Shown here piece after piece: positions 1 through 41,702 of a stretch of 57,350 bases of DNA. The stretch spans positions 1 through 57,350 of the forward strand of contig CAYSAM010000004.1 of assembly GCA_964429015.1 (NCBI GenBank), written 5' to 3'. A model generated the notes under the pieces. It had not been told where the DNA came from, ran no database searches, and worked only from the letters and a program-made list of their open reading frames with translations. The position numbers were made by a program, and so were the translations under genes. Every line of letters begins with the position of its first letter. Position 1 is the stretch's first letter. Source of the stretch: an uncultured Pseudomonadales bacterium. GTDB lineage: Bacteria > Patescibacteriota > Microgenomatia > UBA1400 > MFAQ01.

Positions 1-768
1 GATGGCTACTCTACAGACAAAACTGTAGAGATTGCTAAAAAGTATAAAGCAAAAGTACTATTAAGAGAAAACAATCCTATTTTCCACGTTCAAAAGCAAA
101 TAGCCAACAATGAAGCAAAATCTGATTGGGTGCTTCAACTGGACACAGATGAAGTTGTAAGCAAAGAAATGAAAGCTGAAATTCAAAAACTTTTGGGGGG
201 TGAAAGCTTTGGAGTTAGCGGCTGGATATCACCAATTAAGCATAAAATTAACCAACTCCTAAAAATTTTCCCCGAGCCAAAACCCCTAGAAGAAGCAGCA
301 AGTGCTTATTGGTTACCTAGAAAAAATTATTTTTTAAACCGATTTTTAGCTCATACTGGCCAGTATCCAGATCCTGTTATTCGTTTGTTCCAAAAAGGTC
401 AAGCTTTTTTACCTGCAAAAAGTGTTCATGAACAAATGGTGGTCAAGGGAACTATTGGTTGGCTAAAAAGCGATCTAGAACACTACGGCACCCCCAACTT
501 TAGTCGCTACTTGCTGCGAGAAAACCGCTACTCTAGCCTTACAGCCATGGAGCTAAAAGAGTTAAGGCTAAAAATAAACTTTTTCAATACGATCAACTAT
601 TTGTTTATAAAACCCTTAATTACTTTTTTACGGCTTTATTTTCGTTTCCGAGGCATACTAGATGGTTTCCCTGGGTTTGTATTTTCGCTTTATTCCGGGT
701 TACATTTTGCCTTCGCCTATATGAAGCTATGGGAACTATATAAAAAGGAGGACCTCGCTATCAAGTAG
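1..768 (+). CDS. Glycosyltransferase family 2 (GT-A), N-terminus outside window
   Basis: Frame 1 is open from nt 1: DGYSTDKTVEIAKKYKAKVLL...SDWVLQLDTDEVV (GT2 DxD region). It runs into the listed 130..768 ORF. Later YPDPVIRLFQKG...SVHEQ and a hydrophobic tail, as in LPS-core-type GT2. Confidence 0.8.
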   Translation, partial: DGYSTDKTVEIAKKYKAKVLLRENNPIFHVQKQIANNEAKSDWVLQLDTDEVVSKEMKAEIQKLLGGESFGVSGWISPIKHKINQLLKIFPEPKPLEEAASAYWLPRKNYFLNRFLAHTGQYPDPVIRLFQKGQAFLPAKSVHEQMVVKGTIGWLKSDLEHYGTPNFSRYLLRENRYSSLTAMELKELRLKINFFNTINYLFIKPLITFLRLYFRFRGILDGFPGFVFSLYSGLHFAFAYMKLWELYKKEDLAIK

Positions 769-791
769 TCCAGGCGATATAATTTCAGTGC

Positions 792-1805
792 ATGAGTAAA
801 GATATTAGAGTTCAGCTTATATTTCATAACCAATCAAAGGGAAGAGGTATCGGTGTCTACGGAGAGAATCTCCAAAATGAGCTCAAAAAAATTAAAGGCG
901 TTAAACTTGTAGATAGTAGTCCCGATCTCATTCACTATACTTTTTACGATATTTTTTATCCCACTCTAAAAATAAACACCAAAATCCCTTGTGTGGTGAC
1001 TGTTCACGACGTGACACCCCTAGTTATGTCCGATCGCTATCCAAAAGGAATACTCACAACCATTGGCCTTATTCGTCAATGGTTTCAGCTAAAGAAATCT
1101 TCGGCCGTTATAACTGACTCTGTTTGTTCAAAAAAAGACATCTCCAAATATCTATGGATAGACGAGAGTAAAATTTTTGTTACCCCGCTTGCTGCAAACG
1201 GTCTTTATAAAAAAAGTGTTTCAGAAAGCGAAAAAAAGAAAATAGCGGCCAAATACAATTTGCCAGAAAAGTTTATTTTAACTGTGGCAGCTGGTCCAAA
1301 TCCTAATAAAAACTTACCAAATCTTGCTGAGGCTACCGAAAGACTGGGTATACCTTTGGTTATTGTGGGTGGAGGTATCAACCAAAAAATTGTTAAACCA
1401 GTAGAGCCGGAGTTAATTGATTTAGTAAGGTTAGAAGTTTACCCGCATTTGATAAGGTTAGATAACGTTCCAAACGAAGAATTGTTAATTCTCCTAAAAC
1501 TTGCTACTAGCTACGTTCAGGCGTCCTACTATGAGGGTTTTGGTATCCCTTTACTAGAAGCTATGACGGCGGGGTGCCCAATAGTTAGCTCAAAAACTTC
1601 TAGTTTGCCCGAAATATATCCAGAAGGAACAATTACCTTTAATCCCAAAAATATTTCGTCAATTGAAAAGGGTATCAAAAAAGCCATTAATATGAAAGGT
1701 AAGTTATTAGAAAAATATCTTGCCACAAATAAAAAACGTTCCGAAGATTTTTCTTGGGAAAAAACTGCCCAAGCGACCAAAGAGGTTTATTTATCTGTCT
1801 TATGA
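792..1805 (+). CDS. Glycosyltransferase, GT4-type (GT-B)
   Basis: 337 aa. C-terminal signature YEGFGIPLLEAMTAGCPIVSSKTSSLPEIY (E-x7-E). Stop overlaps the next start (ATGA at 1802). Confidence 0.85.
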   Translation: MSKDIRVQLIFHNQSKGRGIGVYGENLQNELKKIKGVKLVDSSPDLIHYTFYDIFYPTLKINTKIPCVVTVHDVTPLVMSDRYPKGILTTIGLIRQWFQLKKSSAVITDSVCSKKDISKYLWIDESKIFVTPLAANGLYKKSVSESEKKKIAAKYNLPEKFILTVAAGPNPNKNLPNLAEATERLGIPLVIVGGGINQKIVKPVEPELIDLVRLEVYPHLIRLDNVPNEELLILLKLATSYVQASYYEGFGIPLLEAMTAGCPIVSSKTSSLPEIYPEGTITFNPKNISSIEKGIKKAINMKGKLLEKYLATNKKRSEDFSWEKTAQATKEVYLSVL

Positions 1806-2866
1806 AAAATTACTTAGAAGTAATCAAAACTTTTTTGGGTTGGAGATTTATATTGTTTTTTCTGTCTTTGCCTGTAATTGGTTTGGCGGGCAATCTAACT
1901 CCATTTGCAAATTTTGATGGTCTTCGCTATATAAGTATTGCTCAGGAAGGATATGGTACCCCCAACACTTTTTATAGTTACTCACTTTTTCCCCTATACC
2001 CACTCTTGATAAAGTTTTTATCTCCTTTGTTTGGTTACTTGTACTCTGGTCTCTTTCTCTCCCACCTGTTTCTTTTACTAAGTTTAATTGCCTTTTATAG
2101 ACTTGCAAGACTAGATTATTCAAAATCAGTGGCTCAAAAAGCAATAATGTTGCTGCTTTGTTTTCCGGCTTCATTTTTTTTCGTATCTGTCTATTCAGAA
2201 TCACTCTTTCTTTTTTTGAGTTTAACCTCAGTCTATTTTTGTCGTCAAAAAAAATACTTATTTTCTGTTCTTGTTGCCGCTCTTGCCTCATACACAAGAG
2301 CAGCGGGGATGTTTCTCTGGCTAATTATTCTCGTGGAATACTTAGAAGAAAACAAAGGTCAGATAAAAGAAATATTCAAGCCAAAATTATTATTGCTTTT
2401 AATACCACCGTTGGGCTTTGTTTACTATCTAAATTATTTACAGATTTACACAAGTAGTATTCTTAAATTTCTACCCTCTATTCCAAATAAGTTCGTTTTT
2501 TTACATCAAGTTATATTGCGCTATCTAAAAATGATAATATTTATTGATCACACAAGTAGTTTATTTTGGGTAATTTTAACCGAGCTCATAATTGGTTTTT
2601 TTATGCTCTACCTGTTAGTTGTTTCTTATAACAAAATTAGATTCTCATACTGGCTCTACTTTTTTATATCTTATTTGATTCCTACACTTTGGGGGAGCTA
2701 CAGTGGCATTTCCCGATTTATCGTAGTTGTTTTTCCAATGTTTTATTTTTTAAGCTTCTGGCTAGAAACTAAACCACAAATTTATCAAAAGGCGTTTTAT
2801 CTTTTTTCGTTTTTGTTAATGATCTTAAATATGAGTCTATTTTTAAAAGGAGTTTTTGTTGGCTAA
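1802..2866 (+). CDS. Polytopic membrane glycosyltransferase, GT-C-like (PIG-V/mannosyltransferase-like)
   Basis: ATG at 1802 (ATGA overlap) preferred over the TTG-extended 1754 ORF. Many TM helices. FANFDGLRYISIAQEGY...LFPLYPLLIKF resembles the conserved first-loop motif of PIG-V-like bacterial mannosyltransferases. Confidence 0.6.
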   Translation: MKNYLEVIKTFLGWRFILFFLSLPVIGLAGNLTPFANFDGLRYISIAQEGYGTPNTFYSYSLFPLYPLLIKFLSPLFGYLYSGLFLSHLFLLLSLIAFYRLARLDYSKSVAQKAIMLLLCFPASFFFVSVYSESLFLFLSLTSVYFCRQKKYLFSVLVAALASYTRAAGMFLWLIILVEYLEENKGQIKEIFKPKLLLLLIPPLGFVYYLNYLQIYTSSILKFLPSIPNKFVFLHQVILRYLKMIIFIDHTSSLFWVILTELIIGFFMLYLLVVSYNKIRFSYWLYFFISYLIPTLWGSYSGISRFIVVVFPMFYFLSFWLETKPQIYQKAFYLFSFLLMILNMSLFLKGVFVG

Positions 2867-4143
2867 TGTTAAGTAGACTAAAAAAACTGGACACTCCTCT
2901 TTTTAGAGATTCAAGTATTTATTATCTTGGCAACTTCTTCTTAAATTTTTTTCGATACCTTTTTCACTTACTTTTATTAAGATTATTATCTCCAGAAGAT
3001 TACGGTGAATTTTTAACCTACCTCTCGTTAATGTATCTACTTGCCATTCCTTCTGGAACCATAACGGGAGTTGTTACAAAGGCTGTTTCTGAATTTGTAG
3101 GGAAAAAAGATGGTCAGTCTTTAAATCTATTTTTCTATCAGATTATCAAAAAAACTTTTTTGGCAACCTTACTACTCTCAATATGTCTTTTGGCATTTTC
3201 AGGTTACCTATCAGTTATTTTCAAAGCTCATCAGCTTGCCTTTATAGTTTTGGGTATAGGAGTAATCTTAACCTTGTTTCAGACTGTTTCAAGCTCCTAC
3301 CTTTCCGGTTTACAGCTTTTTGTTTTTCAGACAATTTTGGGATTTTTAGGAGTAATATTGACAATATCAATTAGTTTCTTGGCCATTAGAATGGGTTATG
3401 GTCCAGGCGGTGCTGTAATTGGCCAGACTTTAGCTGCTCTTATTACAACACTAATTGCATACCTAAAAATAAAAAAATATATTTACCCTCTTAAAAAGGG
3501 TAAAGTGAAGTTTTTGTTTAATTTAAAAAATTTTACTGGTTTTAGTTTTATAAATTCAGTAGGGGTAATGTCTCTTATATCAGTTGATATTCTCATGGTT
3601 AGAGTCCTCTTAAGTCTACAAGACTCTGGTATCTACTCCACTCTCTCAGTTATTAGTCGAACTGTTCTCTTTGGTCTAACCCCCATCTCTTCACTGTTAT
3701 TGCCTATTGCCGCAAAAAAAGCATCGGAAGGTAAAAATCATTTTTTAGTTTTTTTAAAACTAGGACTAGTGATGGTAATTCTCAGCAGTATAGCTATAGC
3801 GATATTTTCTTTTTTCCCAAAATTTATTATCCATCTCTTTTCTGGAGCAAGTCATCCAACCACTGTCTTCCTACTACCGATTTTTGCATTATGCATGGTT
3901 TTATTCGCCTTAAATCAGTTTTTGCTAACCTATTTAATGAGTATAAACAAACAGAAATCAAATTTATTTTTACTTATCATTGCCCTAGCTCAACCTGCTT
4001 TAATCTATTTGTTCAAATATAGTTTGCATTCAGTTGTCCTGTGTAATCTTTTTTTGCAAATAACACTACTAACAACATTGATGGTTGTATACTTAAAACC
4101 AATATCTTCTAGTGTAAAAAATAATAATGACCACGTTAGTTAA
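2866..4143 (+). CDS. Oligosaccharide/polysaccharide flippase (MOP/Wzx family)
   Basis: 425 aa, about 12 hydrophobic helices, no soluble domain. Topology and context are typical of Wzx. TAATG overlap with the upstream gene. Confidence 0.7.
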   Translation: MLSRLKKLDTPLFRDSSIYYLGNFFLNFFRYLFHLLLLRLLSPEDYGEFLTYLSLMYLLAIPSGTITGVVTKAVSEFVGKKDGQSLNLFFYQIIKKTFLATLLLSICLLAFSGYLSVIFKAHQLAFIVLGIGVILTLFQTVSSSYLSGLQLFVFQTILGFLGVILTISISFLAIRMGYGPGGAVIGQTLAALITTLIAYLKIKKYIYPLKKGKVKFLFNLKNFTGFSFINSVGVMSLISVDILMVRVLLSLQDSGIYSTLSVISRTVLFGLTPISSLLLPIAAKKASEGKNHFLVFLKLGLVMVILSSIAIAIFSFFPKFIIHLFSGASHPTTVFLLPIFALCMVLFALNQFLLTYLMSINKQKSNLFLLIIALAQPALIYLFKYSLHSVVLCNLFLQITLLTTLMVVYLKPISSSVKNNNDHVS

Positions 4144-4942
4144 AAACAGACTCATCCGCCACAACCCCAAAATGCTATCAGTAATAGTTCCTGCATATAA
4201 TTGCAAAACTATTCACAATGATCTCATTAATATACAAAAATATTTAAAGACCATAAGAAACCATTATGAGATAATTTGCGTTGTTGACGGTCAAAAGTCT
4301 AAAAAAGATAAAACAAAAAAGCGCGCCTTGAAAGCGAAAAATGATCATATAAAAATTTATTCATATCATAAAAATAGAGGTAAGGGCTACGCTATTAGGT
4401 TGGGAATGAGTTATGCAAAAGGTGGGCTGATTGCCTTTATAGATTCAGGTGGAGATGTAAATCCCTCTGGTTTGGGGTTAGCTATAGAGCATATGAAATG
4501 GTACAAAGCTGATGTTATTGTTGGAAGCAAGCGCCATAAAGCAAGCAAAGTTACTTATCCCTGGCAGAGAAAAATTCTTTCCTTTTTTGTTCAAAAAGCA
4601 ACCAAGTTGTTTTTTGGGTTAAATATTTCCGATACACAAACAGGACTAAAATTATTCAGAAGGGAGGTTTTGGTAAAAATAATGCCACGTCTTTTGGTAA
4701 AAAGATGGGCTTTTGACCTAGAAATGTTAGCAGTAGCAAACCACTTGGGTTTTACAAGAATATACGAATCTCCGGTTGAGATTAACTTAAAATTTGGTAG
4801 CAATGTCGGTATTTCTGCTGTCCAAAATTTTATTACAGACTACTTGGCTATAATTTATCGAATCTATATTCTAAAATATTATGACGATAATTATAAGGAT
4901 CGTTGGGCAGGGGATAAGCGCCTTCATTTAAGATACAAATGA
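4127..4942 (+). CDS. GT2 glycosyltransferase, polyprenyl-phosphate hexosyltransferase-like (DPM1/ALG5/GtrB-like)
   Basis: LSVIVPAYNC...CVVDGQ...AFIDSGGD...RWAFDLEMLAVA pattern. An alternative ATG at 4172 would remove the 17-nt overlap. Confidence 0.75.
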   Translation: MTTLVKNRLIRHNPKMLSVIVPAYNCKTIHNDLINIQKYLKTIRNHYEIICVVDGQKSKKDKTKKRALKAKNDHIKIYSYHKNRGKGYAIRLGMSYAKGGLIAFIDSGGDVNPSGLGLAIEHMKWYKADVIVGSKRHKASKVTYPWQRKILSFFVQKATKLFFGLNISDTQTGLKLFRREVLVKIMPRLLVKRWAFDLEMLAVANHLGFTRIYESPVEINLKFGSNVGISAVQNFITDYLAIIYRIYILKYYDDNYKDRWAGDKRLHLRYK

Positions 4943-5952
4943 TAAAACCACTTGTCTCAGTTATTATTGTCGACTACAAAAAAAGCAACCCTTATTTAAA
5001 GGAGGGACTAGATGCTATAGCCAAGCAAACTTATAAAAACTACGAAATAATTCTAATAACAGATTATCCCGTTGGTCTAGTCTCACCAAAACTGCGCAAA
5101 AAATCATATGGTAAATACGTAGGTCCTGCCAAAAAAAGAGATGATGGTGCAAAGATGGCAAGGGGTAGCATTTTAGCCTTTTTAGATGATGATGCCTTTC
5201 CTGATATAAACTGGCTAAAAGAAATGGTTAAAGAGTACAAAGACAAGGAAATCGTTGCCGTTGGTGGGCCAGGTGTAACACCACCGGGAGTGAGTTGGCA
5301 AGAAGATGCCTCGGGTTGGGCGTCAGCTTCTCCACTTGGTTCGGGAACATTCTCATATCGATTTTTACCTGGTAAAAGACAGCTTGTAGATGATTATCCA
5401 TCCATGAATCTATCTGTTCGGCGCAAAGAATTTTTATCAATAGGGGGTTTTGATTCTAATTACTGGCCTGGGGAAGACACTAAGCTGTGCCTAGATCTTA
5501 TCTCTAAGCTAAATAAAAAAATTATCTATAACCCAAAAATGTTAGTCTATCATCATCGGCGACCTGTTTTTAGAAAACACTTAATTCAGAATGGCAATTT
5601 TGGGCTACATCGTGGGTTTTTTGCGAGAATTCTACCCAAAACATCACTTAAGCCTATTTATTTCCTTCCGTCCTTATTATTACTAGGTGTCAGTTATTTA
5701 ATTGCTGGATATATTCTGTCTATTATTGGTAGACAGGAATACGTAAATCTACCTTTTTATCTTCCAATTCTATATTTAACCTACCTTTACCTTTTTCTCT
5801 TGTTTGCAAACTCAATTTGGATCAGTAAATATACAAAAGGTAAAAAAACGTTTCAGGCCCTTTTTTCTATTATTGTTATTTTTGTTACCCATCTTTGGTA
5901 TGGATTAAAATTTTTACAAGGATTACTATTTACTGATAAACTAACAAGATAG
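4939..5952 (+). CDS. GT2 glycosyltransferase with C-terminal membrane anchor
   Basis: VSVIIVDYK...AFLDDDAFP...GEDTKLCLD motifs, followed by several C-terminal TM helices. ATGA overlap with the upstream gene. Confidence 0.8.
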   Translation: MIKPLVSVIIVDYKKSNPYLKEGLDAIAKQTYKNYEIILITDYPVGLVSPKLRKKSYGKYVGPAKKRDDGAKMARGSILAFLDDDAFPDINWLKEMVKEYKDKEIVAVGGPGVTPPGVSWQEDASGWASASPLGSGTFSYRFLPGKRQLVDDYPSMNLSVRRKEFLSIGGFDSNYWPGEDTKLCLDLISKLNKKIIYNPKMLVYHHRRPVFRKHLIQNGNFGLHRGFFARILPKTSLKPIYFLPSLLLLGVSYLIAGYILSIIGRQEYVNLPFYLPILYLTYLYLFLLFANSIWISKYTKGKKTFQALFSIIVIFVTHLWYGLKFLQGLLFTDKLTR

Positions 5953-5967
5953 TTCTTGTATCCGGGC

Positions 5968-6003: not shown

Positions 6004-6270
6004 ATGCAAAAAATAATAACAGATGAAAATCAATCGGTGGGGGTAAGGGAAGATGGTTATACGGTCACGGTTGATCTCAATAAATGCATTGCCGCCGGCC
6101 CCTGTGCTATAGCTGCTCCAGGTGTTTTTGAAATACGCCCCGAAGATGGAAAGGCAATAATAAGCAATCCTGATGGTGAAGACCTCGATAAAGTACTGGA
6201 GGCCGCACGTTGTTGCCCAATTTTAGCTATTAGTATTAAAAATCAAGCAGGTAAACAAACCTTCCCCTAA
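6004..6270 (+). CDS. Single-cluster ferredoxin (3Fe-4S/4Fe-4S type)
   Basis: 88 aa. CIAAGPC ... CCP cysteine pattern and the VDLNKCIAAGPCAIAAPGVFEI motif are typical of small redox-partner ferredoxins. Confidence 0.8.
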   Translation: MQKIITDENQSVGVREDGYTVTVDLNKCIAAGPCAIAAPGVFEIRPEDGKAIISNPDGEDLDKVLEAARCCPILAISIKNQAGKQTFP

Positions 6271-6276
6271 GTCTTT

Positions 6277-6315
6277 GTCATTGCGAGGCACGACTTTAGG
6301 TCGGCCGTGGCAATC
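6277..6315. repeat. Truncated (left-half) copy of the palindromic CGTCAyyGCGA...GCAATC element family
   Basis: GTCATTGCGAGG, then hairpin CACGAC-TTTAG-GTCGgccGTG, then GCAATC. Same order of modules as the left arm of the 56750-56858 element. Confidence 0.5.
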
Positions 6316-6335
6316 AATAAAAATATATTCATATA

Positions 6336-7939: not shown

Positions 7940-9121
7940 ATGGTAAAAGTTGTTATAGTTTCAGGATTGCTGCCTTCAGGTCATTACACCGAAAACTTAG
8001 CGGGTGGGCTAAATAAAATAAAAAAATTAAAGCTCTTAATTTATACCGATTTAAGAAAAGAGAATCTCCAGGTAAAAAAATGTGGCAAAGTAATACCTGT
8101 TTGGTCAAAGTCTCCAAAGTTTATTTTTCAGATTTTGGGCAGACTCCTAAAAGACAAGCCAGACGTGGTTCATTTTCAGCACGAAATAAATATGTTTGGT
8201 GGGTTAGCAACGGCAGTTATCTTCCCTTTTTTGTTGATTTCAGCTAGATTTCTAAAAATAAAGATTGCTACTACAGTTCACGCCACAGTAAAATCCGACC
8301 AAATAGACTCTGAGTTTGTAGAAACTTTTAACCAAAACCCAAAAATAATTAAACCTATTTTTCTAAAGCTTTTTTTCCGTTTTCTCTATAAATCAATTTG
8401 CCAATTTTCTGACCTATGTTTTGTTCATACTAACACCGCAAAGAGCGTTTTGCTCAGTTACTACCCACATGGACAAAAAAAAATAAAAGTTATTGCCACC
8501 GCAATACCTTTGGTTGACAGTAAAAAATATAAAAAGGAAAAATACTTTTTATACTTTGGTTATATTGCTAGAAGAAAGGGACTAGAAAATCTTATTCAAG
8601 GGTTTAAAGAGTTCTGTAAAAAAAATCCAAAAAGTAAATTTAAACTGCTTCTAGCAGGTGGAGTCATCAAGGGTCAGGAAGAGTCACTGCAAGAGTTGCA
8701 AAAAACCATCAGTACGGCAAAGCTAAAAAACAAGATAAAGTATCTTGGTTTTTTAGAGAAAAATATTCAAAACAAGCTTTATAAACAGGCCTACGGTGTA
8801 GTTATTCCAGCAAAACTCTCCATAAGTGCAAGTGGACCACTTTACCATGCCTTTAGTCATGGTAAGTTTGTTCTGGCCTCAAACGTTGGGCACCTTAAAG
8901 ACGAAATAAAAAGTGGCTATAATGGCTACCTTATACCAAATACAGACTGGTCACGAGGATTTTCCAAGGCAATAAAGAATCCTATTTGGGTAAAAAAAAT
9001 TGAAAGTGGATCGCTGTTTACTGCATATCAAAGAACACCACTTAAAACAGCAAGGAAATACTTTAAGTCTTATAGCTTACTTTTACAAAGAATGTATAAT
9101 AAAAAAAATGAGATCGCTTAA
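7940..9121 (+). CDS. Glycosyltransferase, GT4-like (GT-B)
   Basis: 393 aa. FGYIARRKGLENLIQGF...LLLAGG...ISASGPLYHAFSHGKFVLASNVGHL matches the GT-B C-terminal domain layout. The E-x7-E motif is degenerate. Confidence 0.65.
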   Translation: MVKVVIVSGLLPSGHYTENLAGGLNKIKKLKLLIYTDLRKENLQVKKCGKVIPVWSKSPKFIFQILGRLLKDKPDVVHFQHEINMFGGLATAVIFPFLLISARFLKIKIATTVHATVKSDQIDSEFVETFNQNPKIIKPIFLKLFFRFLYKSICQFSDLCFVHTNTAKSVLLSYYPHGQKKIKVIATAIPLVDSKKYKKEKYFLYFGYIARRKGLENLIQGFKEFCKKNPKSKFKLLLAGGVIKGQEESLQELQKTISTAKLKNKIKYLGFLEKNIQNKLYKQAYGVVIPAKLSISASGPLYHAFSHGKFVLASNVGHLKDEIKSGYNGYLIPNTDWSRGFSKAIKNPIWVKKIESGSLFTAYQRTPLKTARKYFKSYSLLLQRMYNKKNEIA

Positions 9122-9830
9122 ATATAATGGCAGCATGGTTTACGACTCCTTAACAGATGCAGAAATCAGAGCCAACTATCAACATAAACACGTTGTAGAT
9201 TTGTACCTTAAACATTTTAAGGACAAAAAAGTTCTTGATGCGGGGTGTTGGACAGGCACAATAGAAAAAGAGGTTTCTTCACGAAAATTTAAATGCGAAA
9301 TAGTTGGTATAGATCAAAATAAAGCAGCGCTTAAAACCGCCAAAAAAAGTTTTCCTCAGTATAAGTTTTTTCAGATAGAGCTAGATTCACCAGACAAAAA
9401 GTTTGTAAAAAAGCACGGTGGAACTTTTGATACCATTGTTTTTTTGGATGTTATAGAGCACATACCAGTAGGTACAGAGGTTAAAGTGCTTAAGTTCTTA
9501 AGAAAAATGCTCAAGCCGGGCGGGGTAATTATCCTTAGTACAATGTTGGATCATAAATATAACTTTATAGACCCAGCCTGGTTTTTTGGTCACAGGCACT
9601 ATAAAGCAAGCAGAGTTCGAAAATTTCTAGTTTCAGCTAAGTATAAGGTTAAACAACTCCTTAAAATAGGCAATCTCTATTGGGACCTGGACCTACTGTA
9701 TCTCTACATCTACAAACATATTTTTAAAACAGAATACAGAACTACCAAAAGTATGTATAAAAACATCTATCGAGGTATGAAAGAACCTCAAAAATACGCT
9801 ACTAGAATTTACGCCCTTGCCAAAAAATAA
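9108..9830 (+). CDS. Class I SAM-dependent methyltransferase
   Basis: ATG at 9108 preferred over the TTG-extended 9000 ORF. Motif I VLDAGCWTGT, then FDTIVFLDVIEHI and LKPGGVIILST. Confidence 0.75.
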   Translation: MRSLKYNGSMVYDSLTDAEIRANYQHKHVVDLYLKHFKDKKVLDAGCWTGTIEKEVSSRKFKCEIVGIDQNKAALKTAKKSFPQYKFFQIELDSPDKKFVKKHGGTFDTIVFLDVIEHIPVGTEVKVLKFLRKMLKPGGVIILSTMLDHKYNFIDPAWFFGHRHYKASRVRKFLVSAKYKVKQLLKIGNLYWDLDLLYLYIYKHIFKTEYRTTKSMYKNIYRGMKEPQKYATRIYALAKK

Positions 9831-9831
9831 T

Positions 9832-14199: not shown

Positions 14200-14250
14200 T
14201 TTTTCTATTATACTTAATAAGCCAAATATAATTATTGGTAAGATACAAAA

Positions 14251-23416: not shown

Positions 23417-23420
23417 AACA

Positions 23421-29539: not shown

Positions 29540-29540
29540 A

Positions 29541-33723: not shown

Positions 33724-34916
33724 AGATTCTAATGCTTACACCATATTTGCCTTTTCCAGATTCTTCTGGTGGGCAAATTCGTACTCAAAATCTTTTAAAA
33801 CATCTCTGTAAAAAACACGAGATAACTTTAATATCTCTAATAAAGGACTCTGAAGAAAACAAAAACATTAAACCATTATTGAAGTACTGTAAGAAGGTTT
33901 TAACTTTTCAGCGAAGCAAGAATCCTTGGACAATAAAAAATATTCTTAAAACTGGGTTTTCCTTGGATCCATTTCTAATTGTCCGAAACTTTGCTCCTGG
34001 GGTTAAGGAGGTGGTTGCTAAAGAGCTCTCTACTGGTAAATATGATCTGATCCATGCAGAAACTTTTTATGTTATGCCAAGCATCCCCCAAACTAACCTA
34101 CCCATAATCTTGGTCGATCAAACTATAGAATACTTGGTTTATCAGCACTATGTGAACGAAACAGCACCCTGGTTTATAAGACCGCTTCTTCAAATAGATG
34201 TTGAAAAAATGAAGTACAAAGAAAGACTCTACTGGAAAAAGGCAACCCAAGTTGTTGCGGTTTCCGAGGCAGACAAAGAAGAGATGCATAAGTTAGAGCC
34301 TAACTTAGATATAAAAATTATTCCCAACGGAGTCAATCTAGATTTATTCCGTAAAAAAACAAATTGGGACAGTAGTAATAAAGCCATTTTACAGATAAGT
34401 AACTTTAAATGGCTCCAAAACGTTGAGGCTGCTCACGTTTTAATTGAAAAAGTTTTTCCCTTAGTAAAAAAGAAAATAACTGACGCAAAACTTTGGATTG
34501 TTGGTCAGCACATTCCAAAAGATATTTTAAATCTAAATAGTGCTGATATTCTTGTAAAGTCAGTACCTGAAGATGATGCTAAGTCTTTGGTTGACGCTTG
34601 GCATGATGCTGGTGTTTTCGCTTCAACAATTAAAGGTCCTGGCGGAACTAGACTAAAAAACTTGGCAGCCATGGCAAGTCAGTTACCAATAGTTTCCACC
34701 AGGGTTGGAGTTGAAGGTTTAAAAGTTAAAGATAAAGAGCATGTTTTAATTGGAAATAGTGCTCAAAAAATGGCAAGCTTAATAATAAAAGTCATTAAAA
34801 ACCCCAAACTTGCCAAAAAAATCTCACTTGCTACTCGTAAACACGTTGAAAAAAACTTTGATTGGCGCATAATTGCCGATAAGCTCGATGGTTTATATAT
34901 AGATTTAAAAAAATGA
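33720..34916 (+). CDS. Glycosyltransferase, GT4-like
   Basis: [30 protein letters not shown]-terminus. [28 protein letters not shown]-terminal domain. Confidence 0.75.
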
Positions 34917-35830
34917 CAAACAAAAAACTAGATCTTGCCGTAATAATTATTAGCTACAACACTTGCCAGCTCTTGGACGACTGTATAAAGTCCATTTACA
35001 GCTCCTATCAACCAAGTAAGGGGTTAGAAATAATCGTTGTCGACAATAACTCACAAGATGGCAGCGTTAATATGATTGAGAAAAAATACCCCAAAGTTAA
35101 ACTCATAAAGAATAAGAAAAACACAGGGTTCTCACATGCTAATAACCAGGCAGCAAAAATAGCTAGCTCTAGTTATCTATTGTTTTTAAATTCTGACACT
35201 GTCTTGAGAAAGTTTAGCTTGGTAAAGCCCCTAAAATATCTCAAAACCCATCCCGAAGCGGGAGGGGTGACAATTAAACTTGTACTCAAAAACGGAAAAC
35301 AAGATCTCGATAACCACCGTGGTTTTCCAACACCCTGGACAGCTCTTTGTAAGTTTGGTGGTCTATCTAACATTTTTCCCAACTCAACTTTTTTTAATAA
35401 CTATCATTTAGGCCTAAAAAATCTTAACAAAGTTCATCAAATACCTGTAACAGCAGGATCATTTCTTATGATGCCTGCCAAATTTTTTGAAGAAATAGGT
35501 GGGTGGGACGATTCTTACTTTTTTTATGGTGAAGATATCGATATCTCTTATCGAATAAATGAATTGGGAAAAAAAATAATATACTATCCCAAAACCCAGG
35601 CACTTCACCTGAGAGGAGCCTCATCGGGACTAAGAAAAGAAAATGAAAATAACGCCGCCTCGGACAAAGAAAATCGACTAAGAGTAGCTAAGGCCTCAGT
35701 TGATGCTTGGAAAAAATTTTATAAAAAGTTTTATGTCAACAAATATCCTAAAATAGTTACCTCAACAGTTCTTTTTGGAATATCAACTTTAGGGTTTTTT
35801 CGTTTACTAAAATACAAGCTAAAAAAATGA
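34913..35830 (+). CDS. GT2 glycosyltransferase
   Basis: [57 protein letters not shown]. Confidence 0.85.
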
Positions 35831-36966
35831 AAATTGGTATTGATGCCAGACTGTATGGGGTTGAGCACACTGGTCTTGGGAGGTACGTCTATGAATTGGT
35901 AAACAATATCCTTAAAAACGACAAAAAAAACGACTATGTCTTATTTTTAAATTCCAAACACGCCAGCGATTTTCAAAACTTTAAAAGAGTAAAGACGGTC
36001 GTAACCAACATACCAATATATAGTTTTTCTGAGCAATTAGTCCTTCCGATGATATTTACAAAGGAAAAACTTGATTTGTTACATATCCCAGTCTTCAACG
36101 CCCCACTATTATATCCAGGTAAATATGTTTTAACTATTCACGATTTAATAAAGCACGACTCAAAGGGTCTAGATACTACAACGAGGTCAATGTGGATGTA
36201 CTTTTTTTTAAGAGCGGGATACTTACTTTTGTCTTCTCTTATTACCAAAAGGGCAAGTCACATTATTGTTCCAACTGAGTTTGTTAAAAAAGATGTAACT
36301 GCAAGGTTAAGGGTACCAGCGCACAAAGTATCTGTAACATATGAGGCAGTTTCCGGCTCACTTAAAGATCTTGTCTTAAGTGAAAAAGAAAAAAAACAAA
36401 CCCTAAGTAAATATCAACTTTCCCAGCCCTTTCTTGTTTACACAGGCAATGTTTATCCTCATAAAAATATCGACATTCTTATCGACGCAGTTTGCCAACA
36501 CAATCAAGAAAAAGAAGTTGACGTGGACTTGGCAATAATTTGTGCTCGTTCCATTTTTTGGGAGAGATTAAATAAAAAAATACAAGATAGAGGAGTGGGT
36601 GACCACATTAAACTATTAGGCTTTTTGGACGACAACGAGATTTCTAGATTGTATAGTTTGGCTTTAGCACTTGTCCATCCGAGCAAAATGGAAGGATTTG
36701 GACTAACCGGTTTGGAGGCTATGAATGTTGGCTTGCCGGTAGTTTCGAGTAATGCCAGTTGTTTGCCAGAGGTTTATGGAGACGCAGCTTTATTTTTTGA
36801 TCCGAATAGTCTTGATGATTTGGTAAAAAAAATAAATCAAATCATAAAAGATTCCGAACTTAGAACATCTCTTGCTGCCAAAGGATACCAGCAAGCCAAA
36901 AAGTACTCTTGGCAAAAAATGGCAACTCAAACAAAGAACATCTACGATAAGTTATTTACAAAATGA
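35827..36966 (+). CDS. Glycosyltransferase, GT4-type
   Basis: [31 protein letters not shown]. Confidence 0.85.
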
Positions 36967-38054
36967 AAGTTGCTATTGTTTACGATAGAGTAAATAAGTA
37001 CGGCGGAGCAGAAAGATTTTTAGAAACCATACTAGATATTTTCCCCAAAGCTCCAATATTTACTTTGGTTGCCAGCACATATTTACCAAGCTGGTCAAGA
37101 AAAAATAAGGTTTACCCAACTTTTTTAAATTGGTTTCCTTTTTTAAGAACAAGACACGAGTTGCTGGCACCTATCGCCCCAATGGCATTTGAAACTCATA
37201 ACTTAAAAGACTACGACCTCATAATTAGTGTAACCAGTGCCGACGCTAAATCTGTTGTTACCTTACCACACCAAACCCATATTTGTATTTGTCTTACCCC
37301 AACTCGCTATTTATGGAGTGGACAAAAGGAATATAGAAAAGATCCAAAGCTAAAATTTTTACCCCAATTTTTACTAAAATATTTTAAGTTTGTTGATCTT
37401 CTGCTCTCAACGAGGCCAGACTATTTTATTGCCATTTCCAAGGAGGTAAAGAAACGAATTCAAAAATATTACCATAGGGAGTCTACTGTTATATATCCTC
37501 CCGTAGATAATCAGTTTTTTGTAAAAAAGCCTGTTAACCAAAAAAGTAGAAAATATTACTTGATTGTTTCCCGCCTGGTACCATACAAAAAAATAGATTT
37601 AGTAATTAGTGCATTTAATAAAAACAAGCAAAAACTGATAATTGTAGGGGAGGGGAGCGAGTTAAATATTTTGCAAAAACAAGCCAAAAGAAATATAAAA
37701 TTTGTTGGTTTAGTGCACGATGAGGAGTTAAAACAATATTATCAAAACGCAAAAGCGGTAATTTTTCCCCAACGAGAGGACTTTGGCTTGGTTCCACTCG
37801 AGTCACAAGCATCAGGCACACCTGTAATTGCCTACAACTATGGGGGTGCCAAGGAAACAATAGTCAAAAACCAAACTGGTATTTTTTTTCAACACCAGAC
37901 TGTTACTTCTATAAACTTGGCCATAAAAAAATTTTCCAAGTTAAATATTGAATATGATGCTTGTTTGAATAATGCTAAGAAGTTCAACACTCTACGCTTT
38001 AAAAAAGAGCTCCTTTATTGTGTCAACAATGCCTTAGCTAATACTGCTAATTAA
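36963..38054 (+). CDS. Glycosyltransferase, GT4-type
   Basis: [20 protein letters not shown]-terminus. REDFGLVPLESQASGTPVIAYNYGGAKETI. Confidence 0.8.
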   Translation: MKVAIVYDRVNKYGGAERFLETILDIFPKAPIFTLVASTYLPSWSRKNKVYPTFLNWFPFLRTRHELLAPIAPMAFETHNLKDYDLIISVTSADAKSVVTLPHQTHICICLTPTRYLWSGQKEYRKDPKLKFLPQFLLKYFKFVDLLLSTRPDYFIAISKEVKKRIQKYYHRESTVIYPPVDNQFFVKKPVNQKSRKYYLIVSRLVPYKKIDLVISAFNKNKQKLIIVGEGSELNILQKQAKRNIKFVGLVHDEELKQYYQNAKAVIFPQREDFGLVPLESQASGTPVIAYNYGGAKETIVKNQTGIFFQHQTVTSINLAIKKFSKLNIEYDACLNNAKKFNTLRFKKELLYCVNNALANTAN

Positions 38055-39097
38055 AGATCTCCAGAATTTATTCTATCAACGACTTGGTTAACTAAACTAG
38101 TTTTATTTTTTTTGCTAACAAGTATTCCGTTTTTGGACTCTATAACCACCACATCCTCTAAACCAATTGTAGCTATGGTCTTCCCAGTCTCACTCCACAA
38201 AAAGTTGTTATCACCGTCAATTTGAATATCACCTCCAGTGCCAGGATATATCCTTGTCTTATCATAGTACTTGCCAACAGCTTCCCAAGTTCCAAAATCT
38301 ATCCACTCAAAGTTATTTTCGATAACAAGTGACCTGCCATCTTTGTGTGAAAGCCTAGTAACAACTTCAATTTGATCCTTTGGCATTTTTATAAACTCAG
38401 TTTCTACATCTGCCCCAGTTGCTATTGCAACAAGCGGATCGTACCACTCCTTTCTATACCTCTTAAACATTTCCAGCATTCCGACAGGTGTCATGCTAGA
38501 GTGATTTGTGTGTAGCAAAAGTTTTCCAGAACCCATTAATTCTTTTATTCTGTCTACCTCAGATCTATCTACAAAATCGTCAACTTCAAATATTTTTACT
38601 CCATTTTCTTGTGCGACAAGTTTCCCTTTTAGTAAATAATCAACCCCTCCTTGGTGCCACTTTGGCTCAAAACCACTAGTGACATACTTTCCCGTCGATA
38701 CTATATATTTTTCCGCAATTTTTAAAAATTCAATAAGGGAATCTTCTGGTAATCTTAGGTCATCGGCTTGGATAATCATAAATGGTTCACTTCCCTTTCC
38801 CAGTTTGATTAAGTTTGCAGCCGCCAGACCGTTAGCTGGCCCCTGGTTTCTTGTTTCTGGCTCAATAAAAACATTCTCGGCTACCAACTCTGGAGCTTGA
38901 TGGTGGGCAATTTTAGCCTGAATTGAATTTGTTTGTAAGTAAATTTCCTCTGGTTTAAACCACTTTCTAAGTACTCTCCAGTTGATCTGAAATAAAGATT
39001 CTCCATTTACAAGTGGTAAAAAGTGTTTTGGCATGGCGGGGGTACTCATTGGCCACATTTTTGTTCCTACCCCTCCACAAATTATAACTGGTATCAT
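38051..39097 (-). CDS. manC: Mannose-1-phosphate guanylyltransferase-like nucleotidyltransferase
   Basis: ATG at 39097 (MIPVIICGGVGTKMWPMS, i.e. the GGxGTxxWPxS P-loop) preferred over the GTG-extended 39130 start. 4-nt convergent overlap with the upstream GT4. Confidence 0.78.
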   Translation of the reverse strand: MIPVIICGGVGTKMWPMSTPAMPKHFLPLVNGESLFQINWRVLRKWFKPEEIYLQTNSIQAKIAHHQAPELVAENVFIEPETRNQGPANGLAAANLIKLGKGSEPFMIIQADDLRLPEDSLIEFLKIAEKYIVSTGKYVTSGFEPKWHQGGVDYLLKGKLVAQENGVKIFEVDDFVDRSEVDRIKELMGSGKLLLHTNHSSMTPVGMLEMFKRYRKEWYDPLVAIATGADVETEFIKMPKDQIEVVTRLSHKDGRSLVIENNFEWIDFGTWEAVGKYYDKTRIYPGTGGDIQIDGDNNFLWSETGKTIATIGLEDVVVIESKNGILVSKKNKTSLVNQVVDRINSGDL

Positions 39098-39159
39098 GAT
39101 ATAGATTATAACTAAACTATTACTTGTCACAGTATCACTTGTTGTCTGGTTAAGATAAA

Positions 39160-39822
39160 ATGACCATAACTATGTTTTACGATTCAATCAAAAGACTTAT
39201 CGACATTCTCGCCTCACTCATTCTTGCTATTCTTTTTTTACCAGTCTGGATAATTATTCCCATTATCTTAAAAATAGATTCAAAAGGTCCTCTTTTTTAC
39301 AAACCAGAAAGGGTGGGCAAAAATGGAAAAAAATTTGGAATGTACAAATTTCGCTCCATGAAAATGTTTGAGGTCAACGGTAAAGAGGTGCATGCTACAG
39401 AGTTTTGGAATCATAATCCAGTTCTTTTTGAAAAATACAAAAAAAATGGTTGGAAGTTAGAACTAGACGAAGATCCGAGAATAACAAAACTTGGGAGGGT
39501 CTTAAGGCAGACAAGCATAGATGAAATGCCACAAGTTATAAATGTGCTCAAAGGTGAAATGAGCCTAGTTGGTCCGAGAGCCTATGTGGAACCGGAGCTA
39601 AAAGACGCTATTAAGCGTTATGGTAAAAATGTTGAAAAGCTTATAACAGAAAGTTTAACGGCAAAGCCTGGCATCACAGGACCGTGGCAAGTGTCTGGCC
39701 GTAACGAAATTCCTTGGAATCAACGGGTAGCTATAGATGCTGACTATGCCAAGAGAAAATCTATCATTTACGACATCTATATTATTCTGAAAACCCCATT
39801 TGCTATGATTAGTAAGTGGTAG
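39160..39822 (+). CDS. Small monotopic phosphoglycosyl transferase (bacterial sugar transferase, PglC/WbaP-C-like)
   Basis: 220 aa. KFRSM, DEMPQVINVLKGEMSLVGPRA, PGITGPWQVSGRN. Confidence 0.9.
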   Translation: MTITMFYDSIKRLIDILASLILAILFLPVWIIIPIILKIDSKGPLFYKPERVGKNGKKFGMYKFRSMKMFEVNGKEVHATEFWNHNPVLFEKYKKNGWKLELDEDPRITKLGRVLRQTSIDEMPQVINVLKGEMSLVGPRAYVEPELKDAIKRYGKNVEKLITESLTAKPGITGPWQVSGRNEIPWNQRVAIDADYAKRKSIIYDIYIILKTPFAMISKW

Positions 39823-39842
39823 ATCTATTTAACAAACAAAAA

Positions 39843-41702
39843 ATGATGAAAAAAATCCTATACATACTTTTGCCTTTACTAATCATAATCTTGGTTGTTG
39901 GCGCTGGTGCCTTGTATGCCTATACAGCAGCAAAATCTTTTTTGCCAAACACTAACGCGCTTATGCAAACCGCTGATGAGTTAAAAGTTGCTTTTCAAAG
40001 TCAAGACTTAATACTTTCAAAAACCAAAACAGAGCAACTAGCTAAGGAAGTTGCTGAGTTAAACACTAAATACCAAAAATATTCCTGGGTCAGTAAACTA
40101 CCACTAGTGGGAAGTTATGCAAGAGATGGTCAATCAGCGATAAACGCTTCTAGTTATCTAGTTAAATCTTTAGACACTCTTATTGTTTCTGTTGAGCCAT
40201 ATGCAGACCTTTTAGGTTTTGTTACAAGTGCCACCACAGAAGGAAAGATAAAAGCCACTCAACCTCAAACAATTGAAGATCGCATTATTTTTATGGCTCA
40301 AACCTTGGATAAAATTAGCCCTGATCTCGATAGAGTTGGTGCTGACATGGAGCTAGCTCAAAAAGAATTAGCTAAAATCGACGCCAATAGGTATCCAGAA
40401 TCAATAAAAGGAAAAGCTGTAAGAAGTAAAATAGTAAGTCTAAAATCTACTGTTTCCGAGTCTGCAACCCTACTCTCACAAGCCAAACCACTAATAAAAC
40501 TTTTTCCTGAACTCTTAGGTAATCCAAATTCAAAAACCTATATGGTCCTTTTGCAAAATGATGCTGAGTTGCGTGCCACTGGTGGCTTTATGACTGCTTA
40601 TGCATTTCTAAGAGTAACAAAAGGAAAGATAGAGCCATTAGCTTCTTATAACATATACGACCTAGACGACAGATTCAAGAAAAAAGTCCCAGCCCCAGAA
40701 CCAATTAAAAAATACTTGAACGAAAACTACTTAAATTTAAGAAATGTAAACTTGTCTCCTGACTACAAGGTTTCAATGGATGAGTTCTATAAATACTATC
40801 GAGAAATTCCTGGTATGCCCAAAATTGATGGCATAGTTGCTATAGATACCAAGTTTCCAGTCGAAATTCTCAAGATAATCGGCCCCATTGGTGTTGGTGG
40901 TTGGGGTAACTTTGGCCCACAAATAGACAAGAGATGTGACTGTCCCCAGGTTGTTTATGCTTTGGAAGACATGATCACCAAACCAGTCGCGGGTATCAGA
41001 CCAGATCGCAAAGCAGTCTTGGGACCCCTAATGCACTCTATGATGGCCAACGCCATGGGAAGTCCAAAACATACCTGGCCCAAGCTTCTAAATGTCGCCT
41101 TGAGTGCAATAAAAGAAAAGCATTTACTTTTCTACTTTATGGAAGACAAGTCACAACTTATTGCTGAAGACTTCAATGCTGCAGGTAGAATCAAAGATTA
41201 TGCCGGAGACTATCTTCACATAAGTGACTCTAACTTCGGTGGAGCAAAGTCTGACATGTTTATAACTCGCGAAGTCGAACAAGAAATAACCACCGAGAAT
41301 GGCACCGTAACAAAAACAGTATCCATTTCCTACAATAATCCCAGAAAAGGCGACAACTGTAACCTAGAGGCGGGACAGCTATGTCTAAATGGTATTTATA
41401 GGGACTATGTCAGACTTTATGTTCCAAAGGGGTCTAAACTTCTTTCAGTTGTCGGATCAGAAGTGAAAGAGCAAGTAAGTGAGGACTTGGGAAAAACGGT
41501 TTTTGAAAGCTTCTTTACCATGAGGCCACAATCTCAAAGCAAAATAGTTTTTAAATACCAACTACCAAATTTAGATCTTTCTACTTACAAGTTCTTAATC
41601 CAAAAACAACCAGGCCTACCAACCATAAAACACACCATTATTTATAATGGCAGTCAAACTGTAGTTAACTTAAGTGAGGATAAAGAGGTTGTCTTAAATT
41701 AA
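39843..41702 (+). CDS. DUF4012 domain-containing exported protein
   Basis: ATG at 39843 preferred over GTG at 39816. N-terminal TM. YMVLLQNDAELRATGGFMTAYAF is the hallmark DUF4012 motif. Confidence 0.8.
   Translation: MMKKILYILLPLLIIILVVGAGALYAYTAAKSFLPNTNALMQTADELKVAFQSQDLILSKTKTEQLAKEVAELNTKYQKYSWVSKLPLVGSYARDGQSAINASSYLVKSLDTLIVSVEPYADLLGFVTSATTEGKIKATQPQTIEDRIIFMAQTLDKISPDLDRVGADMELAQKELAKIDANRYPESIKGKAVRSKIVSLKSTVSESATLLSQAKPLIKLFPELLGNPNSKTYMVLLQNDAELRATGGFMTAYAFLRVTKGKIEPLASYNIYDLDDRFKKKVPAPEPIKKYLNENYLNLRNVNLSPDYKVSMDEFYKYYREIPGMPKIDGIVAIDTKFPVEILKIIGPIGVGGWGNFGPQIDKRCDCPQVVYALEDMITKPVAGIRPDRKAVLGPLMHSMMANAMGSPKHTWPKLLNVALSAIKEKHLLFYFMEDKSQLIAEDFNAAGRIKDYAGDYLHISDSNFGGAKSDMFITREVEQEITTENGTVTKTVSISYNNPRKGDNCNLEAGQLCLNGIYRDYVRLYVPKGSKLLSVVGSEVKEQVSEDLGKTVFESFFTMRPQSQSKIVFKYQLPNLDLSTYKFLIQKQPGLPTIKHTIIYNGSQTVVNLSEDKEVVLN

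Follow-up and report, generated by a model that had tools for sequence, protein, structure and literature searches.

A two-part, GT-C-rich glycan locus beside the division and cell-wall genes of a Microgenomates bacterium

The stretch of contig CAYSAM010000004.1 analysed here (57,350 nt, hereafter the window) carries, in its first ~42 kb, a glycan locus of 38 genes. The locus lies directly upstream of a division and cell-wall (dcw) gene cluster, as proposed by the original prediction, which had been made from the sequence alone; the same holds in relatives. The window contains 62 open reading frames (ORFs) of at least 100 aa, and all ORFs between 1 and 43.1 kb were scanned against Pfam; every ORF named in that prediction was recovered in place. 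The locus encodes 21 glycosyltransferases (GTs), of which six are GT2, nine GT4-type and six polytopic GT-C enzymes. Hidden Markov model (HMM) scoring with Pfam upheld all six GT2 and all nine GT4-type assignments, and also the two MOP flippases, the Wzy_C protein, four S-adenosylmethionine (SAM) methyltransferases, the left-handed beta-helix (LbH) protein, Gmd, the short-chain dehydrogenase/reductase (SDR), ManC, the small polyprenyl-phosphate glycosyl-1-phosphate transferase (PGT) and the DUF4012 protein. The predicted gene list holds, apart from a ferredoxin/B12 radical-SAM pair (6004–7892) and a gene at 29514–30098 that had been missed. The one-strand arrangement is likewise borne out (35 of 38 genes on the plus strand), and since 13 ATGA-type 4-nt overlaps and two TAATG junctions join the genes and the gaps between them are too small for any further gene, the packing is operon-like. 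Genes are called below by their lower window coordinate, with c for the minus strand.

Analysis of gene order in related genomes indicates that the locus is not one unit but a composite of a conserved core (23.4–41.7 kb) and a variable arm (1–21.4 kb). More than 25 Microgenomates contigs of independent origin show the order again. When GTDB genomes were scanned with the 25401 family, 22 loci came up in Collierbacteria, Woesebacteria and other Microgenomates; about 18 of them share the series MOP flippase, GT2 (minus strand), GT-C (25401), GT4, GT4, LbH, 29514-type gene, GT2, Wzy_C, GT-C (32296), GT4, GT2 and GT4. A metagenome scan with DUF4012 gave ten loci, nine of them running GT4, ManC (minus strand), PGT, DUF4012, recO, lipoprotein-like gene and mraZ to ftsA; the tenth is a short contig with DUF4012 and recO alone. 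The same order in relatives shows that the dcw-adjacent position is a lineage trait. The arm is common to close relatives only (L001 and L002, partly L005 and L011). The closest relative, the 55-kb ENA contig L001, is collinear with the window from the GT2 gene 4127 to the flippase gene 23421, with orthologue identities of 72% for 14251, 86% for 19689 and 77% for 25401. It carries a Fic-domain gene (L001 13962–14900) inserted between the orthologues of 16550 and 18193, and an additional 587-aa PMT-like GT-C gene (L001 18047–19810) that is absent from the window, indicating that genes were gained or lost within the arm. Two of the GT-C genes belong to the core (25401, 32296) and four to the arm (1802, 14251, 18193, 19689); a GT-C of the 14251 type also occurs in other glycan contexts (L003). 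Chimerism of the contig was tested by synteny: it is collinear with independent assemblies across 4–53 kb, and because independent contigs repeat the gene order from 4.1 to 53 kb we conclude that it is not chimeric. The proposed super-cluster with an unusual GT-C excess is real as a locus and in its GT-C density, but not as a single unit, and both the density and the mixing of assembly routes have precedents, to which we return below.

Among the six GT-C candidates, 32296 alone was detected directly by Pfam (PMT 33 bits, PMT_2 32 bits, above threshold). The other five (1802, 14251, 18193, 19689, 25401), as well as the further polytopic protein 16550, gave no significant match in Pfam or NCBIfam, and for the five a Pfam search relaxed to E up to 10 added nothing of use. 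All six GT-C proposals are supported, 32296, 14251 and 25401 directly and 1802, 18193 and 19689 by transitive homology; Pfam, AlphaFold2 (AF2) models with Foldseek, homologues and hhalign point to GT-C fold or homology rather than to transporters. A hydropathy scan found 7–15 hydrophobic segments per candidate, and in family alignments the first outside loop carries an invariant acidic residue in each of the six families. The polytopic proteins of the locus show no detectable mutual similarity by all-against-all BLASTP and are thus not recent duplicates.

The two families without a curated model were assigned from structure. A search of 5.8 billion proteins gave only 25 homologues of 14251; none is annotated, and all come from Patescibacteria or metagenomes. 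The AF2 model built on the homologue alignment (pLDDT 80, pTM 0.82) has mycobacterial AftD (6w98) as its top Foldseek match in the PDB (E 2e-7, probability 1.0), followed by STT3 and ArnT. The Asp of a GGD motif after the first transmembrane helix (TM1) is invariant in 20 of 20 homologues, and this motif is probably the catalytic loop. The public gene call for this protein (P0001, 732 aa) begins 36 codons late (window 14251–14358); TM1 and the invariant motif lie upstream of that start, which makes the GTG at 14251 the likely initiation codon. The protein gave no match to the AftD family HMM (Pfam GT-C_AftD/DUF3367) at E up to 10, its homologue P0006 reached E 0.31, and the 14251 family profile met the AftD sequence at a non-significant E of 2, in the N-terminal region. 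Since the likeness is at the level of fold alone, we do not class 14251 as AftD. The 25401 family comprises 79 homologues, none with a Pfam domain and the named ones from Woesebacteria or Microgenomates. Its AF2 model (pLDDT 94, pTM 0.92) has GT-C enzymes as all of its best 23 Foldseek matches (STT3 E 2e-5, DPY19, PglB, AftA, ArnT with a TM-score of 0.57, ALG3, AftB, EmbC, ALG6, AftD and PimE). In its first loop E31 is invariant and D51, Q52 and H53 are near-invariant, D51 being present in at least 90%. Despite the STT3 and PglB matches, 25401 is not claimed as an oligosaccharyltransferase: it is without a WWDYG-type motif, and its conserved C-terminal motif is PSLPWYL. In both models a C-terminal domain of mixed alpha/beta structure comes after 11–15 long helices.

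The other four candidates are connected to known GT-C families through sequence. The 1802 family has 9203 representative homologues at E <1e-3; in a sample of 55, Pfam matched PIG-V (Mannosyl_trans2) in 26 (best 5.6e-14), PMT_2 in 13 and GT87 in three. D39, in an NFDG motif after TM1, is invariant, and NCBIfam gave a weak match to AZOBR_p60025, 'surface glycopolymer formation' (E 5e-5). A homologue search with a concatenated 18193, 19689 and 25401 query returned a single match, P0026, which is 43% identical to 18193 over its full length and scores 36 bits, above the PMT_2 threshold, in the shared region; the 18193 orthologue in L001 matches PMT_2 at E 8e-4, and the DD pair (D27-D28) of GDDWFHL after TM1 is invariant. 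The 19689 family aligned with the 32296 family in hhalign (95.8%, E 8e-9) and was negative against the 18193 family (4%). Its 587-aa paralogues in relatives exceed the PMT_2 or PMT thresholds, and D37-E38 is invariant. A genome scan with the two-sequence 19689 alignment found no match, the patterns drawn from it being poor. In 32296, D27 and D35 of loop 1 are invariant. Compared with canonical GT39 PMT enzymes, 32296 has no MIR domain match and its loop 1 reads ADWHS...RQADT instead of the DE motif; for these two reasons we place it in the PMT/PMT_2 clan but not among canonical PMTs. The seventh polytopic protein, 16550, predicted to carry an IPT domain, is polytopic, and the IPT/TIG match stayed below threshold though the region is conserved. 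Its transmembrane (TM) region is poorly conserved, and the C-terminal 85 aa (IPT-like) are its best-conserved part, with a weak match to the Sec5 IPT among PDB sequences (E 0.15). It is not assignable as GT-C by Pfam, NCBIfam or PDB profile searches. Apart from the AftD and Sec5 signals given above, profile searches of PDB sequences yielded nothing useful on the families of 14251, 25401, 1802, Wzy_C and 16550.

An artefact, in which a chimeric assembly or transporters mistaken for GT-C enzymes would make the GT-C excess illusory, might be suspected from the lack of a significant Pfam or NCBIfam match of their own in five of the six candidates and from the exact window proteins being unrecorded in the contig index. 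The repeated gene order in independent contigs speaks against it, as do the even G+C across the window (0.30–0.40) and the Foldseek results for the 14251 and 25401 models, in which GT-C enzymes score at probability 1.0 and major facilitator superfamily (MFS) transporters at no more than 0.23 (TM-score at most 0.12). We find this explanation scarcely credible.

Table 1. Genes of the glycan locus and the adjoining dcw region, with window coordinates
Position	Strand	Product	Evidence
1..768	+	GT2, 5' end lost at contig start	Pfam Glycos_transf_2 E 1.4e-7
792..1805	+	GT4-type (GT-B) glycosyltransferase	Glycos_transf_1 E 9e-20, Glyco_transf_4
1802..2866	+	GT-C, PIG-V/GT76-like, 354 aa from ATG 1802	Pfam matches of homologues
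2866..4143	+	MOP/Wzx-type flippase	Polysacc_synt E 1.6e-8
4127..4942	+	GT2, polyprenyl-phosphate-sugar synthase-like, without TM domain	Glycos_transf_2 E 2e-20
4939..5952	+	GT2, C-terminal region hydrophobic	Glycos_transf_2 E 1e-14
6004..6270	+	4Fe-4S ferredoxin, 88 aa, probable partner of radical-SAM enzyme	Fer4_13 E 6e-12; pair also in L001
6336..7892	+	B12-binding radical-SAM enzyme	Radical_SAM E 2e-17, B12-binding; closest NCBIfam model HpnJ E 2e-48, far under cut-off
7940..9121	+	GT4-type glycosyltransferase	Pfam
9108..9830	+	SAM methyltransferase	Methyltransf_23 E 5e-14
9817..10431	+	SAM methyltransferase	Methyltransf_23 E 2e-22
10428..11537	+	GT4-type glycosyltransferase	Pfam
11534..12664	+	GT4-type glycosyltransferase	Pfam
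12619..13536	+	SAM methyltransferase	Pfam
13411..14199	-	SAM methyltransferase, convergent with 12619 gene	Methyltransf_23 E 1e-17
14251..16557	+	GT-C, AftD-like fold, 768 aa; ~13 TM, extracytoplasmic beta-rich domain, C-terminal TM	AF2 model and Foldseek
16550..18133	+	Polytopic membrane protein with C-terminal IPT/TIG-like domain; 8-nt overlap with 14251	TIG E 0.004, below threshold
18193..19692	+	GT-C, PMT_2-like	Homologue P0026
19689..21356	+	GT-C, PMT_2-like	hhalign to 32296 family; paralogues
21392..22420	+	Gmd, GDP-mannose 4,6-dehydratase	GDP_Man_Dehyd E 7e-96
22424..23416	+	SDR, probably Rmd-like GDP-4-keto-6-deoxymannose reductase	Epimerase E 7e-23
23421..24689	+	MOP/Wzx-type flippase, first core gene	Polysacc_synt_3 E 2e-19; position kept in ~18 loci
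24669..25382	-	GT2, polyprenyl-phosphate-sugar synthase-like, 237 aa, soluble	Glycos_transf_2 E 3e-31
25401..26699	+	GT-C, unannotated Microgenomates family	AF2 model and Foldseek
26696..27799	+	GT4-type glycosyltransferase	Pfam; synteny
27796..28917	+	GT4-type glycosyltransferase	Pfam; synteny
28904..29539	+	LbH acyl/acetyltransferase	Hexapep E 5e-12
29514..30098	+	Conserved protein, 194 aa, one TM and ~160-aa outside domain	Found in 16 related loci
30085..31041	+	GT2 glycosyltransferase	Glycos_transf_2 E 7e-26
30989..32299	+	Wzy_C-family polytopic protein: polymerase, ligase or O-oligosaccharyltransferase	Wzy_C E 3.5e-13, 50 bits
32296..33723	+	GT-C, PMT/PMT_2 family	PMT E 6e-8, PMT_2 E 1e-7, above threshold
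33720..34916	+	GT4-type glycosyltransferase	Pfam
34913..35830	+	GT2 glycosyltransferase	Pfam
35827..36966	+	GT4-type glycosyltransferase	Pfam
36963..38054	+	GT4-type glycosyltransferase	Pfam
38051..39130	-	ManC, mannose-1-phosphate guanylyltransferase	NTP_transferase and ManC beta-helix
39160..39822	+	Small PGT (Bac_transf), 220 aa	E 8e-59; EPS_sugtrans/WbaP C-terminal domain E 1e-72
39816..41702	+	DUF4012 protein, N-terminal TM and large outside domain; last glycan-locus gene	DUF4012 E 7.5e-21
41702..53368	+	recO, conserved lipoprotein-like gene, dcw (mraZ, rsmH, ftsL?, ftsI, dgkA-type kinase, mraY, ftsW, murG, ftsQ?, ftsA, ftsZ)	Context; directly 3' of glycan locus

Within the arm, the B12 radical-SAM enzyme (6336) is a candidate for C-methylation or rearrangement of a sugar; a gene of this kind is also found near the 14251 homologue in the distant locus L003. 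The first methyltransferase gene probably starts at 9108 and not at the mechanical ORF start at 9000, because ATG 9108 fits the 240-aa orthologue in L001. The methyltransferase genes 12619 and 13411c converge with an ORF overlap of 126 nt, and an opposite-strand methyltransferase gene also precedes the 14251 homologue in L003. The ORF at 13739–14254(+) was rejected as spurious: it is antisense to the methyltransferase gene and is uncalled in the orthologous contig L001. In the core, the 29514 protein, which is encoded in every core locus, has no family match and is a candidate accessory or chain-length factor. The DUF4012 protein shows weak N-terminal similarity to VexD (E 0.019); its family is enriched in the candidate phyla radiation (CPR) and occurs in a Bifidobacterium capsular/exopolysaccharide cluster (PMC6744442).

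Downstream of the locus, the 282-aa protein encoded at 42248–43096 has a lipobox-like LLAGC signal and no family match; every close relative keeps its gene between recO and mraZ. Within the dcw block, ftsI and mraY are separated by the gene of a DgkA-type (diacylglycerol/undecaprenol) kinase (46644–47021). This position is kept in relatives, and the kinase may be linked to the recycling of polyprenyl phosphate for the neighbouring glycan locus. The dcw block of the window holds no mur ligase genes. A small protein encoded 3' of ftsZ weakly resembles Flp pilins at its N-terminus (E 2e-4, below threshold); the same region (53682–57243) also carries genes for a DinB/Pol IV-family polymerase and a minus-strand cupin and a 292-aa ORF without assignment.

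The relatives are metagenome-assembled genomes (MAGs) of Collierbacteria, Woesebacteria and other Microgenomates, some on contigs of 0.6–0.9 Mb. They support the assignment to the CPR and agree with the predicted large coding investment by a small-genome bacterium; judging from the relatives' contig sizes, the locus would make up roughly 4–5% of a ~0.9 Mb genome. Several MAG records in GTDB (L004, L005, L011, L015–L019) are titled 'uncultured Pseudomonadales', 'Gammaproteobacteria' or 'Spirochaetia', which are probably placeholder or wrong labels since the gene content is of the Microgenomates type.

At gene level the locus combines both routes of glycan assembly that had been proposed. The lipid-linked route is represented by a Wzx/Wzy-type set encoded together, namely the PGT (Bac_transf), the MOP flippases (Polysacc_synt, Polysacc_synt_3) and the Wzy_C protein 30989, for which no PDB relative was found by sequence or by profile. 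The route acting at the outer face of the membrane is represented by the six GT-C enzymes and two soluble GT2s resembling polyprenyl-phosphate-sugar synthases. The closest PDB relatives of 24669c are Pyrococcus dolichyl-phosphate-mannose synthase (DPMS; 5mlz, E 2e-20), ArnC and GtrB, and its best NCBIfam models are AglJ (E 1e-30), PgfS, ArnC and PpgS. The 4127 protein shows the same pattern more weakly (NCBIfam PpgS, PgfS and ArnC; PDB GtrB 5ekp, E 1e-9, and ArnC), all NCBIfam scores of the two proteins being below the equivalog cut-offs. A MOP flippase gene stands directly beside each of these GT2 genes (2866 by 4127, 23421 by 24669c), with a GT-C gene nearby. The co-encoded DPMS/ArnC/GtrB-like GT2s suggest that the GT-C enzymes use polyprenyl-phosphate-linked sugar donors. 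With regard to sugar supply, the SDR 22424 has its best PDB matches in Rmd reductases (2pk3, E 3e-20; 6x3b, E 2e-15), and because this neighbour of Gmd is nearest to Rmd, the deoxyhexose is likelier D-rhamnose than fucose. ManC, Gmd and the Rmd-like SDR most likely supply GDP-mannose and GDP-D-rhamnose.

These features could also be read as a membrane-anchored lipoglycan similar to lipomannan or lipoarabinomannan (LM/LAM), that is, a lipid-anchored mannan or rhamnan extended outside by the PIG-V/PimE-, PMT- and AftD-like GT-Cs from donors of the polyprenyl-phosphate-mannose type. The overlap of the 1802 family with PIG-V and GT87, the closeness of 14251 to AftD, the matches of 25401 to AftA, AftB, EmbC and PimE, and the presence of ManC with DPMS-like GT2s would fit such a product, but a phosphatidylinositol mannosyltransferase or acyltransferase of the PimA/PimB type was not found, and PGT, Wzx and Wzy_C point to an undecaprenyl-diphosphate-linked repeat unit, which is not used in LM/LAM synthesis. 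Lipid synthesis is moreover limited in CPR bacteria, and we regard a lipoglycan as improbable.

Taken together, the data argue that the locus is probably a two-part system for a complex cell-envelope glycan of a monoderm Microgenomates bacterium, most likely a wall-associated, methylated and acetylated heteroglycan of mannose and D-rhamnose. From the observed gene identities, folds, synteny and conserved dcw-adjacent position we infer its donor sugars, order of steps and acceptor as follows. The core (a Wzx-type flippase, a soluble GT2, two GT-Cs, five GT4s, two GT2s, the acetyltransferase, Wzy_C, ManC, PGT and DUF4012) would make a polyprenyl-bound oligosaccharide on the cytoplasmic side of the membrane, from donors of the GDP-mannose/GDP-D-rhamnose type, and the carrier-bound product would then be flipped to the outer face. 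There the Wzy_C protein would polymerise or ligate it, and the GT-Cs, supplied by polyprenyl-phosphate-linked donors, would lengthen or branch it or link it to a second chain. The arm (the second flippase, the second polyprenyl-phosphate-sugar synthase-like GT2, four GT-Cs, six cytoplasmic GTs, four SAM methyltransferases and the B12 radical-SAM/ferredoxin pair) may provide strain-specific decoration or a second, methylated chain.

Several points weigh against this explanation. The GT-C support for 1802, 18193 and 19689 is transitive homology, not structure, and the contig begins inside the arm, which is therefore truncated at its 5' end. An LCP (LytR_cpsA_psr) ligase, a GtrA-type flippase, a GacJ/WpsB-type activator and Wzz/PCP were not found among the window ORFs, which leaves attachment to peptidoglycan and control of chain length unaccounted for; LCP or Wzz genes could lie elsewhere in the genome. 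WaaL ligases, furthermore, also belong to the Wzy_C family, as do protein O-oligosaccharyltransferases of the PglL type, and proteins can serve as acceptors for PMT-family GT-Cs.

The last two points lead to a general protein O-glycosylation system, in which the PGT, GT4 and GT2 enzymes would make a lipid-linked oligosaccharide that the Wzy_C protein, acting like PglL/PilO, passes as a whole to pilins or S-layer proteins. The PMT-like GT-Cs (32296, 18193, 19689) would in addition place single sugars on Ser/Thr from polyprenyl-phosphate-sugar, as in actinobacterial Ppm1/Pmt and streptococcal Pgf. The score of 32296 above the PMT threshold agrees with this, but MIR domains are absent from it and from the other PMT-like proteins alike, and its loop is without the canonical DE motif. 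AglJ and PgfS, against which 24669c scores well, are both protein-glycosylation enzymes, and the best match of the SDR, 2pk3, is an Rmd-type reductase from an S-layer glycan pathway. The locus itself, on the other hand, contains no pilin or S-layer genes, its 21 GTs and two flippases exceed the needs of known O-glycosylation loci, and its conserved place beside the dcw genes suits a wall polymer better. Type IV pili abound in CPR bacteria (PMC6744442); for Saccharibacteria, glycosylation of pilins has been predicted without being explored (PMC11623550). We consider a protein O-glycan rather unlikely as the product, and less likely than a wall glycan.

If the wall-glycan explanation is carried further, the core might be the Microgenomates counterpart of an essential secondary wall polymer, a methylated heteroglycan of mannose and D-rhamnose put together mostly outside the membrane by GT-C families so far unrecognised (25401 and the AftD-like 14251). 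We put this forward tentatively, as a possibility that is on balance doubtful. If true, wall assembly driven by GT-Cs in the style of arabinogalactan would exist outside Actinobacteria, and the arm would give each strain a surface identity of its own, with a bearing on how episymbiotic CPR bacteria attach to hosts or are recognised by phages.

CPR/Patescibacteria have tiny genomes, live attached to other cells and have an essentially uncharted envelope chemistry. Searches of the literature on Patescibacteria/Microgenomates GT-C enzymes, mannosyltransferases or cell-envelope glycosyltransferases brought up no account of a CPR locus of this kind. DUF4012 and many Microgenomates-enriched membrane families were listed as hypothetical or uncharacterised by Méheust et al. 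(PMC6744442), and a 2024 study of Saccharibacteria called glycosylation 'unexplored' (PMC11623550). The present analysis gives several 'hypothetical' membrane protein families a fold and a likely role, and the locus, with its defined core beside the division genes and its variable arm, offers a concrete, conserved target for study and provides candidates for surface structures in host or phage recognition.

Comparison with known systems shows which parts of this arrangement have parallels. Precedents for high GT-C density and the mixing of routes are given by the lactococcal/streptococcal rhamnose-rich cell-wall polysaccharide (Rha-CWPS) loci, for which the model comprises a soluble GT2 that makes sugar-phosphate-polyprenol, elongation by cytoplasmic GTs, a Wzx-type flippase, and polymerisation or ligation to another chain by GT-Cs outside (PMC10821137). 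The Rha-CWPS loci (WpsA-J; GacI/J/K/L for the group A carbohydrate, GAC) share with the window the soluble GT2, MOP flippase, series of cytoplasmic GTs, outside GT-Cs, bipartite locus and monoderm host. They differ in that the window has a GDP-mannose/GDP-D-rhamnose route and no rml (dTDP-L-rhamnose) genes, and is without the ABC-transporter rhamnan module, the GacJ/WpsB activator and LCP. It has six GT-Cs where those loci have one to three, the GT-C families being unrelated in sequence, and it additionally encodes a classical PGT and a Wzy_C protein.

The mycobacterial arabinogalactan locus is another precedent, with about six GT-Cs clustered in M. tuberculosis, and in the arabinogalactan/LAM system the GT-Cs act serially, at the outer face, on a single wall polymer. 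That system (AftA, AftB, AftD, EmbA/B/C and PimE, with polyprenyl-phosphate-sugar donors) resembles the window in its many GT-Cs and in the structural matches, AftD being the best for 14251 and AftA, AftB, EmbC, AftD and PimE all appearing for 25401. The window has no genes for decaprenyl-phosphate-arabinose (DprE/UbiA). The 14251 protein is 12–13% identical to AftD, has 768 aa against about 1400 and no Pfam GT-C_AftD match, and the three carbohydrate-binding modules and the acyl-carrier-protein-binding helical bundle of AftD were not shown for it. Its invariant Asp shortly after TM1 can be likened to D41 of AftD (bioRxiv 10.1101/2019.12.22.885152); AftD homologues have been found in Actinobacteria (same reference), the relation to 14251 being at the level of fold only.

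The common polysaccharide antigen (CPA) locus of Pseudomonas aeruginosa (gmd, rmd, wbpW, WbpX/Y/Z) shares the supply of GDP-D-rhamnose, several GT4s and SAM methyltransferases, but it uses the ABC transporter Wzm/Wzt, has no GT-C, and its product is ligated to lipid A-core in a diderm. The three-component systems of extracytoplasmic glycosylation (GtrA/GtrB/GtrC, CsbB/GtcA/YfhO, ArnC/ArnT; reviewed in PMC8035078 and PMC11127046) have in common with the window polyprenyl-phosphate-sugar synthase-like GT2 genes (24669c, 4127) beside GT-C genes and a flippase. In the window the flippase is of the Wzx type, as in GacK, and not of the GtrA family, 24669c and 4127 are without the C-terminal TM helices of GtrB and ArnC, and the components sit in a far larger assembly locus than the stand-alone three-gene modules. 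The architecture parallels the Rha-CWPS loci and the mycobacterial arabinogalactan GT-C system, and the logic of the system is a known one. What is new is the lineage, the conserved coupling to the dcw cluster, the GT-C density and two GT-C families (14251 and 25401) that are absent from Pfam and NCBIfam.

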